Under the pieces are notes generated by a model. That model saw nothing but the letters and a program-made list of their open reading frames with translations. It did no database searches and was not told the origin of the DNA. A stretch of 64,000 nt of DNA, from assembly GCF_013315695.1 (NCBI RefSeq), contig NZ_CP054353.1; one strand, 5' to 3'. The DNA is from Escherichia coli. Its GTDB lineage: Bacteria > Pseudomonadota > Gammaproteobacteria > Enterobacterales > Enterobacteriaceae. Made by a program: the position numbers and the translations under genes. Positions 7,971 to 23,630 of the stretch are shown here, piece after piece (the stretch's first letter is position 1; each line of letters starts with the position of its first letter).

Positions 7971-8222
7971 TTATTCTTCTGAAAAAGCAGAAAAGCCAGC
8001 TTTTATTCCGATCTCTTTCAATACCTGTAATGAAGTGACAAACTCACCGTCGCGCAAGATAAATCCGTCCGTCACTCGGGCATCCACAAAATTAATTAAC
8101 GCAGCCCCATTTTTTTGCAAACACACAATGCGGTAATGACTAACAATATTTCCATTTTCAACGCACACAGCATAGAGGCCATCTTCACAAAAAATTTTAC
8201 GCAGTTCTTCGATGTTCATCAT
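7971..8222 (-). CDS. rem: Hypothetical 83-aa prophage protein; possibly Rem
   Basis: 83-aa ORF located between ydfU and hokD; length and position match my recollection of rem; weak assignment. Confidence 0.4.
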   Translation of the reverse strand: MMNIEELRKIFCEDGLYAVCVENGNIVSHYRIVCLQKNGAALINFVDARVTDGFILRDGEFVTSLQVLKEIGIKAGFSAFSEE

Positions 8223-8340
8223 CAGAATCCTTCCGGATAATTAGCTCTCCCCTTTAAGGGACCATCCCTCTTATCCCTGCGCGCTACTTAAGTATTTTTG
8301 ATTCTATTCCGGCACCGTCCAGAACTTCAAATGCGTTGAA

Positions 8341-8370
8341 AATAAAAACAAAAACCCGCCGAAGCGGGTT
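8341..8370 (-). terminator. Rho-independent terminator of the relB-relE-hokD operon
   Basis: Hairpin aacccgc-cgaa-gcgggtt with a T-run on the minus strand, ~70 bp downstream of the hokD stop. Confidence 0.65.
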
Positions 8371-8438
8371 AAGTGCGGGTGCGTTGAGAATGCCTGCCAC
8401 ATCAGAGGTGGCGAGGGATTTCTCCCTCGCCGGGTCTC

Positions 8439-16054: not shown

Positions 16055-16462
16055 ATGGAAACAAAAAATTTAACTATCGGCGAACGCATCAGGTATCGTC
16101 GGAAAAACCTCAAACACACCCAAAGGTCTCTTGCTAAAGCCCTGAAAATCTCCCATGTGTCTGTATCACAATGGGAACGGGGTGATAGTGAACCTACAGG
16201 GAAGAACCTTTTTGCCCTCAGCAAAGTATTGCAATGCTCACCAACATGGATTCTATTTGGCGATGAAGACAAGCAACCAACACCACCTGTTGAGAAGCCA
16301 GTTGCCTTATCCCCCAAAGAACTAGAGCTCCTTGAGCTGTTTAATGCACTGCCAGAATCAGAACAGGATACCCAGCTCGCCGAAATGCGAGCTCGAGTAA
16401 AAAACTTCAATAAACTCTTTGAAGAATTACTAAAAGCCCGTCAGCGGACAAATAAAAGATAA
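16055..16462 (+). CDS. dicA: DicA, HTH repressor of the dicB operon
   Basis: 135-aa ORF METKNLTIGERIRYRRKNLKHTQRSLAKALKISHVSVSQWERG... (Xre-type HTH). Confidence 0.9.
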   Translation: METKNLTIGERIRYRRKNLKHTQRSLAKALKISHVSVSQWERGDSEPTGKNLFALSKVLQCSPTWILFGDEDKQPTPPVEKPVALSPKELELLELFNALPESEQDTQLAEMRARVKNFNKLFEELLKARQRTNKR

Positions 16463-16534
16463 CATCATCAATGAGTTATCTTTTACCACATCAATTATGT
16501 TAGCTATAGCATACAAAATCACTTGACCGATATG

Positions 16535-16548
16535 TTAGTCATGGCTAA
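16535..16548. promoter_or_regulatory. Third copy of the DicA-operator-like palindrome (TTAGTCATGGCTAA) upstream of ydfA/dicB operon
   Basis: Same palindrome family as in the dicA-dicC intergenic region. Confidence 0.5.
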
Positions 16549-16628
16549 TCTTGTTTGCATCAACACACCGCACGGTGTTCTCAGCAAACAGTTCCGCTAC
16601 CCCAGCGTTAAGGGGAAATGAGGTCAGC

Positions 16629-16784
16629 ATGGATACTATCGATCTTGGCAACAACGAATCTCTGGTGTACGGCGTGTTTCCAAACCAGGACGGCACGTTC
16701 ACCGCAATGACGTATACCAAAAGCAAAACGTTTAAAACCGAAAATGGTGCCCGTCGCTGGCTGGAAAGAAACTCAGGTGAGTGA
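16629..16784 (+). CDS. ydfA: YdfA (51 aa)
   Basis: Internal start MDTIDLGNNESLVYGVFPNQDGTFTAMTYTKSK... within ORF 16551..16784. Confidence 0.7.
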   Translation: MDTIDLGNNESLVYGVFPNQDGTFTAMTYTKSKTFKTENGARRWLERNSGE

Positions 16785-16785
16785 T

Positions 16786-16914
16786 ATGGATTTCGACACA
16801 ATCATGGAAAAGGCTTACGAAGAATACTTCGAAGGCCTTGCCGAAGGCGAAGAAGCTCTCAGCTTCAGTGAGTTTAAACAGGCGCTTTCCAGTTCGGCAA
16901 AATCTAACGGCTGA
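16786..16914 (+). CDS. ydfB: YdfB (42 aa)
   Basis: Manual translation MDFDTIMEKAYEEYFEGLAEGEEALSFSEFKQALSSSAKSNG-stop. Confidence 0.65.
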   Translation: MDFDTIMEKAYEEYFEGLAEGEEALSFSEFKQALSSSAKSNG

Positions 16915-16943
16915 TAAGCGAAACAGCACCGCGAGGAATCAGT

Positions 16944-17162
16944 ATGCAGAAACGAGAACCCGTCATCATCGCGCCAGACTATACCGATGATGAACTTTAT
17001 GAGTGGATGCGCCAGAAAATTAATGCAGCGCAGGATCTGAAATGGGCTAATGAAGCCAGGGCTAAGCAGGCTGAAAATCTGTTCTCTCTGGAGCAGGATA
17101 TCACCAGGCTGGAAAAAGCAGCGGCATTAAGCATTGCCAGAATGATTACATACCCGCGTTAA
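16944..17162 (+). CDS. ydfC: YdfC (72 aa)
   Basis: ORF MQKREPVIIAPDYTDDELYEWMRQKINAAQDLKWANEARAK... Confidence 0.75.
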   Translation: MQKREPVIIAPDYTDDELYEWMRQKINAAQDLKWANEARAKQAENLFSLEQDITRLEKAAALSIARMITYPR

Positions 17163-17502
17163 TAGCTAACCAACGAAGCTAAGGTTGGTAATTAAGGAGT
17201 TCTCCACGGGTGAGGTGGAGTGCGTGCGCCGGACACGGGTGAGCATCCGGCACTGACAGTTTACTGAAAGGATATTTCCATGAAAAGTCAGACCATAACG
17301 CGAAAGCGCACGGCGAGGTAGCTGGTTCATAGATAGCCTGTCGTTAAATTTTCGTCGACCGTGCGCTTCCGGTTGTGGCAACCCGCGAAATGGCGCGGCG
17401 GTAAGTATGGCGGGGTTATTCCTTCCCCGTTGAGGACACCGGGTTGTCAGGTTGACCATACGCTTAAGTGACAACCCCGCTGCAACGCCCTCTGTTATCA
17501 AT

Positions 17503-17557
17503 TTTCTGGTGACGTTTGGCGGTATCAGTTTTACTCCGTGACTGCTCTGCCGCCCTT
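17503..17557 (+). ncRNA. dicF: DicF small regulatory RNA (anti-ftsZ)
   Basis: Sequence TTTCTGGTGACGTTTGGCGGTATCAGTTTTACTCCGTGACTGCTCTGCCGCCC followed by TTTTT matches DicF as I remember it; directly upstream of dicB. Confidence 0.8.
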
Positions 17558-17729
17558 TTTAAAGTGAATTTTGTGATGTGGTGAATGCGGCTGAGCGCAC
17601 GCGGAACAGTTAAAACCAAAAACAGTGTTATGGGTGGATTCTCTGTATCCGGCGTTAATTGTTAACTGGTTAACGTCACCTGGAGGCACCAGGCACTGCA
17701 TCACAAAATTCATTGTTGAGGACGCGATA

Positions 17730-17918
17730 ATGAAAACGTTATTACCAAACGTTAATACGTCTGAAGGTTGTTTTGAAATTGGTGTCACTATCAGTAACCC
17801 AGTATTTACTGAAGATGCCATTAACAAGAGAAAACAAGAACGGGAGCTATTAAATAAAATATGCATTGTTTCAATGCTGGCTCGTTTACGTCTGATGCCA
17901 AAAGGATGTGCACAATGA
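17730..17918 (+). CDS. dicB: DicB cell-division inhibitor (62 aa)
   Basis: Internal start MKTLLPNVNTSEGCFEIGVTISNPVFTEDAINKRKQERELLNKICIVSMLARLRLMPKGCAQ in ORF 17625..17918. Confidence 0.85.
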   Translation: MKTLLPNVNTSEGCFEIGVTISNPVFTEDAINKRKQERELLNKICIVSMLARLRLMPKGCAQ

Positions 17919-18106
17919 ATTCAGCATTTGTGCTTGTTCTGACAGTTTTTCTTGTTTCCGGAGAGCCAGTTGATATTGCAGTCAGTGTTCACAGGACAAT
18001 GCAGGAGTGTATGACTGCAGCAACCGAACAGAAAATTCCCGGTAACTGTTACCCGGTCGATAAAGTTATTCACCAGGATAATATCGAAATCCCGGCAGGT
18101 CTTTAA
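17915..18106 (+). CDS. ydfD: YdfD (63 aa)
   Basis: Internal start MNSAFVLVLTVFLVSGEPVDIAVSVHRTMQECMTAA... in ORF 17861..18106; start overlaps the dicB stop. Confidence 0.75.
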   Translation: MNSAFVLVLTVFLVSGEPVDIAVSVHRTMQECMTAATEQKIPGNCYPVDKVIHQDNIEIPAGL

Positions 18107-18162
18107 AACAGTTCCGTAATAAATATCCGGTTTCATTCTTATATGCCAACAATGGCAGGGAT

Positions 18163-19326
18163 TTGTTCATCCTTAAATCTGTCATGAGGTTAAAACAAAT
18201 GAGTAAAGTCTTTATTTGCGCCGCTATTCCTGACGAACTGGCAACAAGGGAAGAAGGCGCTGTGGCTGTAGCCACAGCCATTGAAGCTGGCGACGAACGC
18301 CGTGCTCGAGCAAAATTTCACTGGCAATTCCTGGAACATTATCCGGCTGCTCAGGACTGCGCTTATAAATTTATTGTCTGCGAGGATAAACCTGGCATAC
18401 CCCGCCCTGCCCTCGATTCATGGGATGCTGAATATATGCAGGAAAACCGCTGGGATGAGGAGTCTGCTTCTTTTGTCCCGGTTGAGACTGAATCCGATCC
18501 GATGAACGTCACTTTTGACAAGCTGGCCCCTGAAGTACAGAACGCTGTCATGGTTAAGTTCGACACATGTGAAAACATCACCGTTGATATGGTTATTAGC
18601 GCACAGGAATTGTTGCAGGAAGACATGGCAACATTCGACGGACATATCGTTGAAGCGTTGATGAAAATGCCAGAAGTTAACGCCATGTATCCGGAGCTTA
18701 AGCTGCATGCCATCGGGTGGGTTAAGCATAAATGTAAGCCTGGTGCCAAATGGCCCGAAATTCAGGCAGAGATGCGCATCTGGAAAAAACGTCGCGAAGG
18801 TGAACGTAAGGAAACCGGAAAATACACGTCTGTTATTGATCTCGCCCGCGCCAGAACCAATCAACAGCACAGTGAAAATTCAACAGGAAAAATCAGCCCG
18901 GTCATTGCTGCCATTCATCGCGAATACAAGCAGACATGGAAAACACTGGATGACGAACTGGCCTACGCTCTCTGGCCTGGTGATGTGGATGCCGGAAACA
19001 TTGACGGCAGCATCCATCGCTGGGCAAAAAATGAAGTTATCGACAACGACCGCGAAGACTGGAAGCGTATCTCGGCATCAATGCGCAAACAGCCTGATGC
19101 CCTTCGCTACGACCGCCAAACTATTTTTGGCCTTGTCCGTGAGCGTCCGATCGACATTCACAAAGATCCCGTAGCACTGAACAAATATATCTGCGAATAC
19201 CTGACGACAAAGGGCGTGTTTGAGAATGAAGAAACAGACCTGGGCACTGTTGATGTTCTCCAGTCATCAGAAACACAAACTGATGCAGTGGAAACTGAGT
19301 ATTTCCAGACATCTGTTATCACTTAA
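18163..19326 (+). pseudogene. ydfE: ydfE-like prophage gene whose 3-prime end runs into IS2 (C-terminus replaced by IS-derived codons)
   Basis: ORF continues 27 bp past the IS2 boundary at 19300 before stopping; true start uncertain (candidates at 18199 or 18403). Confidence 0.55.
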
Positions 19327-20202
19327 CCCATTACAAGCCCGCTGCCGCAGATATTCCCGTGGCGAGCGATAACCCAGCGCACTATGCGGATGCCATTCGT
19401 TATAATGCTCGAACGCCTCTGCAAGGTTCTTTGCTGCCGTTAACCCGTCTGGTTTGGGCATGATACTGATGTAGTCACGCTTTATCGTTTTCACGAAGCT
19501 CTCTGCTATTCCGTTACTCTCCGGACTCCGCACCGCCGTGTTCTTCGGTTCAAGTCCCAACATCCGGGCGAACTGGCGTGTTTCATTAGCCCGGTAGCAT
19601 GAACCATTATCCGTCAGCCACTCCACTGGAGACGACGGAAGATCGTTGCCGAAGCGGCGTTCCACCGCTCCCAGCATGACGTCCTGTACTGTTTCACTGT
19701 TGAAGCCGCCGGTAGTGACCGCCCAGTGCAGTGCCTCACGATCACTGCAGTCCAGCGCGAACGTGACACGCAGTCTCTCTCCGTTATCACAGCAGAACTC
19801 GAACCCGTCAGAGCACCATCGCTGATTGCTTTCTTTCACGGCCACTCTGCCTGTATGTGCCCGTTTCGATGGCGGTACAGCAGGTTTTCGCTCAAGCAAC
19901 AGCGCATTCTGGCGCATGATCCGGTAAACACGTTTGGCATTGATCGCAGGCATACCATCAAGTTCTGCCTGTCTGCGAAGCAGCGCCCATACCCGACGAT
20001 AACCATACGTGGGCAGCTCTCCGATAACATGGTGTATACGGAGAAGCACATCCGTATCATCAGTGTGACGACTGCGGCGGCCATCCATCCAGTCATCGGT
20101 TCGTCTGAGAATGACGTGCAACTGCGCACGCGACACCCGGAGACAACGGCTGACTAAGCTTACTCCCCATCCCCGGGCAATAAGGGCGCGTGCGCTATCC
20201 AC
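19267..20202 (-). CDS. insD: IS2 transposase OrfB (InsD) with ~10-codon C-terminal extension into flanking DNA
   Basis: 311-aa ORF; body matches InsD through ...[11 protein letters not shown], then continues [10 protein letters not shown] because the normal stop lies in the missing IS2 terminus. Confidence 0.85.
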
Positions 20203-20616
20203 TTTTTTGCCCGTCCATATTCAACGGCTTCTTTGAGGAGTTCATTTTCCATCGTTTTCTTGCCGAGCAGGCGCTGGAGTTCTTTAATCTGCTTCATGGC
20301 GGCAGCAAGTTCAGAGGCAGGAACAACCTGTTCTCCGGCGGCGACAGCAGTAAGACTTCCTTCCTGGTATTGCTTACGCCAGAGAAATAACTGGCTGGCT
20401 GCTACACCATGTTGCCGGGCAACGAGGGAGACCGTCATCCCCGGTTCAAAGCTCTGCTGAACAATTGCGATCTTTTCCTGTGTGGTACGCCGTCTGCGTT
20501 TCTCCGGTCCTAAGACATCAATCATCTGCTCTCCAATGACTAGTCTAAAAACTAGTATTAAGACTATCACTTAAATAAGTGATACTGGTTGTCTGGAGAT
20601 TCAGGGGGCCAGTCTA
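19300..20616 (-). mobile_element. IS2 copy (1317 bp), missing ~14 bp of one terminus
   Basis: insC/insD ORF pair; one end GGTTGTCTGGAGATTCAGGGGGCCAGTCTA intact at 20587-20616; the other end matches IS2 only from TATTTCCAGACATCTG inward. Confidence 0.8.
20160..20525 (-). CDS. insC: IS2 OrfA (InsC)
   Basis: ORF 20160..20570 with internal start [41 protein letters not shown]... Confidence 0.85.
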
Positions 20617-21991
20617 TGAGGTATCTGATATCCCAAAAAATGAAACCGCGCCGGAAGCTGAACCATCTGTAGAGCGTGAGGGGCCGTTCTATTTCCTCTT
20701 CGCAGATAAGGACGGAGAAAAATGCGGTCGCGCAAACAAACTTTCTGGTCTGGATAAGGCACTGGCTGCTGGCGCCACTGAAATCACAAAAGAAGAATAT
20801 TTTGCCCGAAAAAATGGCACATACACGGGCTTACCGCAAAATGTAGATACCGCTGAAGATTCAGAACAACCAGAGCCGATAAAAGTTACCGCTGACGAAG
20901 TAAACAAAATTATGCAGGCAGCCAATATCAGCCAGCCTGACGCCGATAAGTTGCTTGCTGCATCACGTGGTGAATTTGTTGAAGGGATTAGTGACCCGAA
21001 TGATCCGAAATGGGTTAAGGGGATCCAGACCCGCGATTCTGTGAACCAGAACCAGCATGAATCGGAACGGAACTACCAAAAAGCGGAACAAAACAGCCCA
21101 AATGCGTTACAAAACGAGCCAGAAACGAAACAGCCTGAACCAGTGGCGCAACAGGAAGTGGAAAAAGTCTGCACCGCCTGCGGTCAGACCGGCGGCGGCA
21201 ACTGCCCTGATTGTGGCGCGGTGATGGGCGACGCAACATACCAGGAAACATTCGATGAAGAGTATCAGGTTGAAGTTCAGGAAGATGATCCGGAGGAAAT
21301 GGAAGGCGCTGAACATCCACACAAGGAGAACACTGGCGGCAATCAGCATCACGATAGCGATAATGAAACTGGCGAGACGGCAGATCGCTCAATTAAGGTG
21401 AACGGTCATCACGAAATCACATCCACCAGCAGGACGTGTGACCATCTAATGATCGACCTTGAAACCATGGGAAAAAATCCTGATGCCCCGATCATCTCAA
21501 TAGGTGCAATATTTTTCGATCCGCAAACCGGAGATATGGGACCGGAATTTAGTAAGACTATCGATCTGGAAACTGCTGGCGGAGTCATTGATCGGGACAC
21601 CATTAAATGGTGGCTTAAGCAATCACGCGAAGCGCAATCTGCCATTATGACCGATGAAATCCCGTTAGATGATGCACTGTTACAATTGCGGGAATTTATC
21701 GACGAAAACTCCGGTGAATTTTTTGTTCAGGTTTGGGGAAATGGAGCCAACTTCGACAACACGATTTTGCGCCGTTCATACGAACGGCAGGGGATCCCCT
21801 GCCCGTGGCGTTACTACAACGATCGCGATGTACGCACAATCGTTGAGCTGGGGAAAGCCATAGACTTCGATGCCAGAACGGCTATTCCATTCGAAGGTGA
21901 GCGCCATAATGCACTTGATGACGCCCGTTACCAGGCAAAATACGTTTCAGTTATCTGGCAAAAACTGATCCCGAGTCAGGCTGATTCTTAA
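20617..21991 (+). pseudogene. Prophage exonuclease-like gene, 5-prime truncated by IS2: zinc-ribbon motif plus C-terminal DEDDh 3-prime-5-prime exonuclease domain
   Basis: Reading frame is open from the IS2 edge with no start codon in host DNA; [16 protein letters not shown] motif; DEDDh motifs [27 protein letters not shown]. Confidence 0.5.
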
Positions 21992-22063
21992 TGTTCAACT
22001 GTCGCCGGTTGTGACTGGTATTCTGCAACCGGCGCTCGTCTGATGTAAGAGATAAAGAAATCG

Positions 22064-22315
22064 ATGAGCGAAGTAATCATGATTGTCTCTCCCGGCAAAT
22101 GGGTATCCGAAGAGCAGTTAATTGCGCTGAAAGGAATAAAAAAAGGTACGTTAAAAAAGGCCCGGGAAAAATCGTTTATGGAAGGAAGGGAATATAAGCA
22201 TGTCGCTCATGACGGTATGCCATGGGATAACAGTCCATGCTTTTACAACCTGGAAGAAATTGATCGCTGGATTGAGCGCCAGGCATCAGCGAGACCAAGA
22301 CGTCATCTTACTTGA
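22064..22315 (+). CDS. Putative excisionase-like small protein
   Basis: 83-aa ORF immediately upstream of the integrase gene on the same strand; assignment positional. Confidence 0.45.
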   Translation: MSEVIMIVSPGKWVSEEQLIALKGIKKGTLKKAREKSFMEGREYKHVAHDGMPWDNSPCFYNLEEIDRWIERQASARPRRHLT

Positions 22316-22349
22316 CTAAAAACCACACTAACTAATGAGAGAAGTTGAA

Positions 22350-23630
22350 ATGAAATATCCGACAGGCGTGGAAAACCATGGAGGGAAATTACGTATCTGG
22401 TTTGTTTATAAAGACGTAAGAGTCAGGGAAAATCTGGGGGTTCCTGACACAGCAAAAAACAGGCGCGTTGCAGGTGAACTACGCTCCTCTGTTTGTTACG
22501 CAATAAAAACTGGTGTTTTCGACTATGCAAAACAGTTTCCCTCCTCACGCAATCTGGAAAAATTTGGTGAGGCCCGACAAGATTTAACCATAAAAGAACT
22601 GGCTGAAAAATTTCTGGCACTGAAAGAAACTGAAGTCGCCAAAACATCACTCAACACATACCGTGCCGTCATCAAAAATATCCTGAGCATAATCGGTGAA
22701 AAAAATCTTGCCTCATCGATTAATAAAGAAAAATTACTGGAGGTTCGTAAAGAGTTACTGACTGGATACCAGATCCCCAAAAGTAACTATATTGTTACAC
22801 AACCAGGGAGATCGGCTGTAACTGTAAATAATTACATGACAAATCTTAACGCCGTGTTCCAGTTTGGTGTTGATAACGGTTACCTGGCAGATAATCCGTT
22901 TAAGGGGATCTCGCCATTAAAGGAATCAAGAACCATTCCGGATCCTCTTTCGCGGGAAGAATTTATCCGTCTTATCGATGCGTGCAGAAATCAGCAAGCA
23001 AAAAATTTATGGTGTGTTTCTGTTTATACTGGAGTTCGCCCTGGTGAGCTGTGTGCACTTGGATGGGAGGACATAGATCTGAAAAATGGAACAATGATGA
23101 TCAGGAGAAATTTAGCAAAAGACCGTTTCACGGTACCAAAAACACAGGCGGGAACCAATCGGGTCATTCATCTTATTAAGCCAGCAATCGACGCTCTCCG
23201 GAGTCAGATGACATTAACGAGACTGAGCAAAGAGCATATCATTGATGTTCACCTCAGAGAGTATGGCAGAACAGAAAAACAAAAATGCACCTTTGTTTTT
23301 CAACCTGAAATGTCAGCGAGAGTAAAAAATTATGGTGACCATTTTACCGTTGACTCAATAAGGCAGATGTGGGACGCAGCGATAAAACGTGCCGGACTCC
23401 GCCATCGAAAATCATATCAGTCGAGACATACTTATGCCTGCTGGTCGCTGACAGCTGGTGCTAACCCGGCATTTATAGCAAACCAGATGGGCCATGCAGA
23501 TGCGCAAATGGTATTTCAGGTATACGGAAAATGGATGTCTGAAAACAATAATGCACAGGTAGCTTTGTTAAATACACAGTTAAGCGAGTTTGCCCCAACC
23601 ATGCCCCATAACGAAGCAATGAAAAATTAA
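22350..23630 (+). CDS. intQ: Phage tyrosine integrase
   Basis: ORF 22335..23630; C-terminal catalytic region with ...HSQRHTYACWSLTAGANPAFIANQMGHADAQMVFQVYGKWM... (R..H..R..Y-type integrase features). Confidence 0.8.
   Translation: MKYPTGVENHGGKLRIWFVYKDVRVRENLGVPDTAKNRRVAGELRSSVCYAIKTGVFDYAKQFPSSRNLEKFGEARQDLTIKELAEKFLALKETEVAKTSLNTYRAVIKNILSIIGEKNLASSINKEKLLEVRKELLTGYQIPKSNYIVTQPGRSAVTVNNYMTNLNAVFQFGVDNGYLADNPFKGISPLKESRTIPDPLSREEFIRLIDACRNQQAKNLWCVSVYTGVRPGELCALGWEDIDLKNGTMMIRRNLAKDRFTVPKTQAGTNRVIHLIKPAIDALRSQMTLTRLSKEHIIDVHLREYGRTEKQKCTFVFQPEMSARVKNYGDHFTVDSIRQMWDAAIKRAGLRHRKSYQSRHTYACWSLTAGANPAFIANQMGHADAQMVFQVYGKWMSENNNAQVALLNTQLSEFAPTMPHNEAMKN

Follow-up and report, generated by a model that had tools for sequence, protein, structure and literature searches.

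An IS2 copy in a Qin-like prophage of Escherichia coli with a 15-bp deletion across its IRR junction

Canonical IS2, a member of the IS3 family, is 1331 bp long, has a 42-bp IRL (PMC3299598) and a 41-bp IRR, and generates a 5-bp target duplication. Its two frames, orfA and orfB, are connected by an A6G frameshift window, whose role has been described (PMC3299598). Transposition proceeds in two steps. In step one, cleavage takes place only at the 3' end of IRR, which is then linked beside IRL to give a figure-of-eight that host replication turns into a minicircle; in step two, the abutted ends are cleaved and integrated (PMC3299598). IRR is the sole donor end of IS2, the outer 11 bp forming its cleavage domain, and mutations in this domain or in the adjacent B-element abolish minicircle formation (PMC3299598). 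IRL is unable to act as donor, and elements with two left ends give no minicircles (PMC3299598). Fusing the whole of GFP to the C-terminus of OrfAB leaves in vivo transposition at the level of the native protein (PMC3219604).

Lesions at IS boundaries are known in several forms. Classical IS-adjacent deletions, produced by intramolecular transposition, start at an intact IS terminus, keeping the IS end and removing flank. With IS629 (with IEE), ISApl1 and IS30, all of which move by a copy-out-paste-in route, deletions start from a bridged figure-of-eight at the IS ends (bioRxiv 10.1101/2023.06.07.543989). In such cases either the entire IS is lost or the deletion reaches outward, and the ends usually join at 2-4 bp microhomologies. 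In the Qin left arm of strain MG1655, a ydfE-type exonuclease gene is truncated by IS2E/insD7, a 706-bp IRR-proximal fragment whose intact IRR tip adjoins intQ and whose IRL half has been lost, along with the 3' end of the exonuclease gene, xis and part of int.

The DNA analysed here, referred to as the window, is a stretch of 64,000 nucleotides from E. coli (contig NZ_CP054353.1), to which all coordinates refer. It contains an IS2 copy homologous to 1317 of the 1331 bp of the canonical element and inserted in the exonuclease gene of a Qin-like prophage (Table 1). The body of this copy shares more than 99% identity with thousands of others, and all of its 1317 bp are identical to a complete IS2 found at the same site in strain AF3 and to both copies examined in strain MSB1_4I. 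The IRL terminus, which reads TAGACTGGCCCCC... on the minus strand (in the window, TAGACTGGCCCCCTGAATCTCC...), stops exactly at 20616 and is an exact match to the 5'-TAGACTGG... that begins an IRL. At the opposite end the element is incomplete. A functional IRR is a 41-bp donor end that carries the cleavage domain and finishes in ...GGGGCAAATCCA-3'; here 27 inner bp are left, the cleavage domain (bp 1-11, according to the domain map in PMC3299598) being deleted together with bp 12-14. The window element is therefore a defective derivative rather than a functional member of IS2. A search of the entire window for a full IRR terminus, tolerating up to 3 mismatches, gave no match. On the minus strand the element finishes ...GATGTCTGGAAATA, with host sequence CTCAGTTTCC... 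directly after it.

Table 1. Features of the IS2 copy and of the interrupted exonuclease gene in the window.
Feature	Coordinates	Strand	Basis
Defective IS2, without outer 14 bp of IRR	19300..20616	-	identity to complete copies
IRL, 42 bp, intact, recipient end	20575..20616	-	exact match to TAGACTGGCCCCCTGAATCTCCAGACAACC, ending at 20616
IRR remnant, inner 27 bp of 41 bp	19300..19326	-	alignment with complete copies in L002 and L004
Deletion junction, ancestral 15 bp GTGGATTTGCCCCTA absent	19299..19300	.	comparison with AF3
TGAG, remaining 4 bp of left TGAGG duplication copy	19296..19299	.	comparison with AF3 and MS 21-1
TGAGG, right duplication copy, intact	20617..20621	.	comparison with AF3 and MS 21-1
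insC/orfA, 121 aa, intact	20160..20525	-	translation; Pfam HTH_Tnp_1, E = 1.8e-19
A6G (AAAAAAG) programmed -1 frameshift window, intact	20202..20208	-	located in sequence
insD/orfB frame, lengthened to 311 aa	19267..20202	-	ORF list
10 new insD codons and TGA stop	19267..19299	-	encoded antisense by exonuclease-gene DNA
Exonuclease gene 5' fragment (ydfE in K-12), 367 native and 8 IS2-encoded codons and stop	18199..19326	+	mapped onto MS 21-1 gene
Exonuclease gene 3' fragment, 456 codons, Rv2179c-like 3'-5' exonuclease domain	20621..21991	+	Pfam PF16473

Relatives of the locus were sought in 5426 complete E. coli genomes, three of which proved informative. Strain AF3 (NZ_OZ547117.1) carries a complete, 1331-bp IS2 that shares the exact insertion nucleotide and the orientation of the window copy and is bordered by TGAGG at each end. 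Its junctions (a slash marking each boundary) read ...GGAAAC TGAGG/TGGATTTGCCCCTATATTTCC...CCAGTCTA/TGAGG TATCTG..., a textbook 5-bp duplication. Strain MS 21-1 (NZ_CP146670.1) has the empty site, ...GGAAACTGAGGTATCTG..., with a single TGAGG. Strain MSB1_4I (NZ_LR898874.1) has the truncated junction exactly as in the window. The only difference between the window and AF3 at the junctions is the absence of the 15 bp GTGGATTTGCCCCTA, the sequence ...AAACTGAGG/TGGATTTGCCCCTATATTTCC... of AF3 being replaced by ...AAACTGAG/TATTTCC... in the window. These 15 bp comprise the 14 outer bp of IRR (TAGGGGCAAATCCA on the minus strand) and the final G of the left duplication copy, so that the full TGAGG pair of the ancestral-type allele in AF3 is represented in the window by TGAG on the left and TGAGG on the right. 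Alignment of the window to AF3 places the deletion unambiguously and reveals no microhomology at its edges. In MS 21-1, where the gene is uninterrupted, the two flanks otherwise adjoin directly, indicating that no other prophage DNA was lost.

A preliminary description of this DNA, made from the window's letters without database searches, had recognised the intact end at 20616, the lack of about 14 bp of the other terminus and the absence of a clean 5-bp duplication in the flanks, all of which the comparison bears out, with the refinements that the total lesion is 15 bp and that four of the five bp of the left duplication copy survive. It had placed the start of the feature at 19267; this position is indeed the stop codon of the extended insD frame, whereas the first IS2 base is 19300. 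It had also proposed a comparison with IS-free prophages to reconstruct what was deleted; the contiguous flanks of MS 21-1 leave nothing further to reconstruct.

The window copy has the overlapping orfA (HTH) and orfB (DDE/rve) frames with the A6G -1 frameshift window that characterise IS2, and the identical copy in MSB1_4I is annotated by RefSeq as a transposase with a programmed frameshift. The normal insD stop codon lies inside the lost 14 bp (...TGT CTG GAA ATA TAG, specifying CLEI*). As a result of its loss, translation of insD, and of OrfAB, continues for 10 codons into exonuclease-gene DNA, read antisense. This lengthening, and the reading of ydfE into the IS, had both been noticed in the preliminary description and are confirmed here; the latter, which adds the codons YFQTSVIT* to the 5' fragment of the exonuclease gene, is a trivial consequence of any insertion within a gene. 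The Pfam domains of InsD/OrfB (HTH_21, rve and rve_3) end at residue 281, and the new tail is outside all three. The transposase coding sequence of MSB1_4I is 30 nt longer than usual in RefSeq (1259 versus 1229 nt), the extended InsD is already recorded there as WP_174183236.1, and the exact 311-aa protein is present in six other public contigs.

The interrupted gene can be reassembled. Joining 18199-19299 to 20621-21991 restores 823 codons in frame, in agreement with the uninterrupted gene of MS 21-1, whose product is 823 aa long (WP_000048342.1). Precomputed Pfam matches to YdfE_N and YdfE_C fall on the fragment equivalent to the 5' part of the exonuclease, and PF16473 matches residues 642-813 of the joined protein (E = 2.3e-67).

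The order of events was examined by comparing 43 kb of sequence shared by the window, AF3, MSB1_4I and MS 21-1. Twenty-five scattered SNPs are private to MS 21-1, making it the outgroup. Two SNPs unite the window with MSB1_4I and none favours either alternative grouping; in addition, a 204-bp in-frame deletion in rspA is common to these two sequences. The window and MSB1_4I thus appear to pair to the exclusion of AF3, a grouping drawn from only two SNPs and one shared indel. Taken together, the SNP grouping and the rspA deletion suggest that the truncated junction is a shared derived state and that AF3 branched off before the deletion. In the simplest history, the exonuclease gene of the Qin-like prophage would have been empty to begin with; a 1331-bp IS2 would then have inserted, duplicating TGAGG, in an ancestor shared by all three IS2-bearing strains (AF3, MSB1_4I and that of the window); and the 15-bp deletion would have come next, in the lineage leading to MSB1_4I and the window strain after AF3 had diverged. 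Recombination between IS2 copies came last, in some strains. The ydeT usher gene of MSB1_4I contains a second IS2, in inverted orientation, and recombination between this element and the truncated copy has swapped their flanks and inverted about 89 kb; the IRL/TGAGG junction is now found on the second copy, and the CATTT duplication of ydeT is split between both copies. We consider it highly probable that the locus as a whole is explained by an ordinary IS2 insertion with TGAGG duplication, followed by a single 15-bp junction deletion in a descendant lineage.

Among the 5426 complete genomes the truncated junction occurs once, in MSB1_4I; three more NCBI assemblies and three metagenome contigs carry it as well. 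The six other contigs that encode the 311-aa InsD, three of which are metagenomic, differ in what adjoins their IRL: GCA_900448625.1 has the arrangement of the window, one has a ydeT junction, another has a third flank, and one of the metagenomic contigs has a fourth. The truncated allele is thus genuine and inherited, its range being limited to a small lineage, and it is already present in annotated public genomes, although not discussed there. A literature search found no specific description of the truncated allele or of microdeletions in the IRR of IS2. The exact junction was not found in IMG/VR. Terminal truncations were also surveyed for an asymmetry between IRR and IRL. None was seen among the distinct IS2 ends in IMG/VR loci (0/98 IRR and 0/116 IRL), where truncation is accordingly rare. 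In PLSDB plasmids, searches with 60-mers gave partial matches for IRR in 19 of 1357 records and for IRL in 21 of 4390, in plasmid lineages that are not independent of one another. When genome contigs were scanned with a 28-mer from the inner IRR, the only matches were two tiny contigs belonging to Sulfoacidibacillus and Lamprocystis assemblies, probably contaminants.

Like canonical IS2, the window copy keeps IRL, orfA, the frameshift window and the orfB domains, and its original TGAGG can still be traced. Unlike canonical IS2, it lacks bp 1-14 of IRR and one bp of the duplication, has a 10-residue tail on InsD/OrfAB and is predicted to be unable to start transposition. The window copy resembles IS2E of MG1655 in being an IS2 lesion, in the left arm of a Qin prophage, that truncates a ydfE-type exonuclease gene. 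The orientation of IS2E is opposite, however, and its internal breakpoint meets ydfE at the equivalent of window position 18965, not 19299, about 335 bp upstream of the window site. On alignment, these differences in orientation and junctions, together with the intact IRR tip of IS2E, rule out a common event. IS2E is an independent event, a different insertion followed by a large deletion, and the MG1655 copy, which the preliminary description had proposed as a guide, is therefore unrelated.

The same description had suggested an IS2-adjacent deletion. That the terminus was deleted after insertion is supported by the comparisons above; the lesion differs, however, from the classical type. Both lie at an IS boundary, but the window lesion does not start at an intact IS terminus: it is a microdeletion across the junction, in which the IS end has been removed and the flank kept, minus one base. 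The process described for IS629, ISApl1 and IS30 is of the kind that could yield a lesion centred on the cleaved end, as seen here. In contrast to those events, the window lost just 15 bp, with the IS left in place and no microhomology.

Two candidate routes of loss were considered on the intact junction. Slippage between direct repeats is rejected, as the sole such repeat in the vicinity, GTGGA, would on inspection predict a different deletion, of 12 bp. Hairpin-mediated loss is disfavoured, as folding is only marginally above that of shuffled sequences and the hairpin boundaries do not match the deletion.

As to how the 15 bp were lost, our tentative preference, to which we give somewhat less than an even chance, is for an error at a nick made by the transposase at the donor end, either in its repair or in the completion of replication there. 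This origin is preferred because the deletion straddles exactly the phosphodiester bond that the transposase cleaves; by our own calculation, if 15-bp deletions that touch IS2 were placed at random, only about 1% of them would span the IRR junction (14 of about 1345 positions). The loss might also be a spontaneous error of replication or repair in which the transposase took no part, such as polymerase bypass of a hairpin apex, its location at the IS end being due to chance and harmlessness. To this we attach a nearly equal probability, again short of one half, and little to the remaining options. Decaying prophage DNA often loses small segments, this lineage has also suffered the deletion in rspA, and the intact junction can form a hairpin (stem TGGAAA/TTTCCA) with the deleted bases at its apex, whose folding energy is -7.9 to -8.0 kcal/mol as compared with a shuffle mean of about -4.6. 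The signal is nonetheless marginal (z about -1.8 to -1.9, 7-8 of 200 shuffles folding as well), the deletion coincides neither with the boundaries of the hairpin nor with any direct repeat, and its position astride the single cleaved bond has the low prior just given. A fuller version of the nick hypothesis, which we regard as doubtful, would make the microdeletion the scar of an abortive IS2 transposition, the donor end having been nicked and its cleavage domain lost during faulty repair or faulty completion of the copy-out step.

Two further explanations concern the reality of the deletion itself. The element could have been truncated already on arrival, inserting by an imprecise or pseudo right end with a 4-bp duplication, TGAG, in which case the IS2 of AF3 would be a separate insertion at the same position. 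Recurrent insertion has some precedent: IS2 is found repeatedly in the exonuclease gene, in the same orientation, at a site 43 bp away in GmM062 and elsewhere in the gene in WP2-S18-ESBL-08 and EcPNK006, suggesting that the region is a preferred target. These known independent insertions are, however, all at different nucleotides, whereas that of AF3 is at exactly the same nucleotide, in the same orientation and with an identical IS2 sequence, and the SNPs flanking it identify AF3 as the nearest relative of the truncated clade. Furthermore, integration needs cleavage at both of the abutted termini of the minicircle junction (PMC3299598), which an end devoid of the cleavage domain could not supply. 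We consider this sequence of events very improbable. Still more remote is the chance that the truncation is an artefact of sequencing or assembly at a repeat boundary. IS copies are classic trouble spots for assembly, and GCA_900448625.1 does show a 1-bp length difference inside IS2; against this, the identical junction recurs across different projects, in three metagenome assemblies and no fewer than five independent genome assemblies, and it tracks phylogeny.

The loss of bp 1-14 of IRR, and with them of the whole cleavage domain, implies that the window copy should be immobile in cis. By the published biochemistry of IS2, it is very probably incapable of forming a figure-of-eight or a minicircle and fixed in place; the preliminary description, too, had judged it probably immobile, a view to which the status of IRR as sole donor end, with a cleavage domain in its outer 11 bp (PMC3299598), lends support. 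Its transposase, on the other hand, probably remains functional, since orfA, the frameshift window and the catalytic domains of orfB are intact and the tail lies beyond the Pfam domains; from the performance of the GFP fusion, a 10-residue C-terminal addition seems unlikely to matter. Finally, the truncated copy clearly still provides homology for recombination with other IS2 copies, as evidenced by the inversion in MSB1_4I and by the multiple flanks found beside IRL.

The IS2 of the window represents the routine decay of a known mobile element and not a new system. It offers a clean, fully reconstructed series of IS decay, whose stages are the empty site, the complete insertion, the terminal 15-bp loss and recombination between copies. 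In annotation, it should appear as a defective IS2 with a read-through transposase rather than as a functional element, and the truncated junction can serve as a convenient lineage marker for a small clade of E. coli. Beyond annotation the finding has little importance, save for the broader idea that donor-end microdeletions might be the footprint of failed transposition. If this were general, elements of the IS3 family would have a self-inflicted route to permanent immobilisation; copies fixed in this way would still provide transposase, as well as homology for inversions, and lesions of this kind should be enriched at donor ends.

The truncated IS2 element is not confined to a single context: across assemblies, four distinct sequences adjoin its IRL end (see table), a diversity of flanks that recurrent recombination among IS2 copies could explain.

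The two ends of IS2 are unequally represented on plasmids. A 60-mer from the IRL end matches 4390 PLSDB plasmid records, mostly at ~95% identity and with 1345 of them from Klebsiella, whereas the corresponding 60-mer from the IRR end matches only 1357. Plasmids seem to carry a widespread IRL-containing remnant or relative of IS2. Two tiny contigs of 394 and 1543 bp, belonging to assemblies of Sulfoacidibacillus thermotolerans and Lamprocystis purpurea, also contain exact IS2 sequence and probably represent E. coli contamination. In five IS2 copies from IMG/VR the IRL tip contains a run of four Cs rather than five (TAGACTGGCCCCT), which would give an IRL of 41 bp, the same length as IRR. The shortened run could reflect a sequencing error in the homopolymer or could be a genuine variant. 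Its potential relevance lies in the additional base pair of IRL, which contributes to the recipient, rather than donor, role of this end (PMC3299598).

Most SNPs private to the window (44 of 47) are packed into four tight clusters, all within the Qin-like prophage and two of them on either side of IS2 inside the exonuclease gene. Sequence comparison found none of these clustered SNPs in AF3 (complete IS2 at the same site), MSB1_4I (same truncated junction) or MS 21-1 (empty site), and GCA_900448625.1, which shares the truncated arrangement, lacks those compared, its sequence spanning only 16267-23202. The clusters look like patches of gene conversion or recombination, the donor possibly being another lambdoid prophage. 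Elsewhere in the window, rspA has lost 204 bp in frame relative to AF3 and MS 21-1. The deletion is common to MSB1_4I, whose shortened product bears the RefSeq name "D-galactonate dehydratase family protein".

Coordinates and flanks of features in the window and of related IS2 insertions
Feature	Position	Flank or duplication	Context
Private-SNP cluster	7978-8427
Private-SNP cluster	17083-17280
Private-SNP cluster	18703-19032
Private-SNP cluster	20724-21389
Predicted ORF	20579-21991 (+)
rspA deletion	25696/25697 (rspA on - strand)
Truncated IS2, IRL flank		TGAGG	original site
Truncated IS2, IRL flank		CATTT	ydeT usher; inversion ~89 kb (MSB1_4I)
Truncated IS2, IRL flank		TAAAC	phage region encoding Dit-like protein
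Truncated IS2, IRL flank		CACT	metagenome contig
IS2 in exonuclease gene	43 bp downstream of window site	GAACC (duplication)	GmM062
IS2 in exonuclease gene	near nt 924		WP2-S18-ESBL-08 and MLI105
IS2 in exonuclease gene	near nt 198		EcPNK006, M23917 and 2 HS-C

An ORF predicted to initiate at a GTG codon within IRL is in frame with the 3' fragment of the interrupted exonuclease gene and includes the whole 3'-5' exonuclease domain. This prophage gene has been the target of at least three additional, independent IS2 insertions among other E. coli strains, and DAX4-type strains carry an IS2-like element immediately downstream of it. In every one of these cases, the transposase is antisense to the exonuclease gene. 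The recurrence of antisense insertions suggests that the region is a hot spot for IS2 or that the gene is subject to selection for its inactivation.
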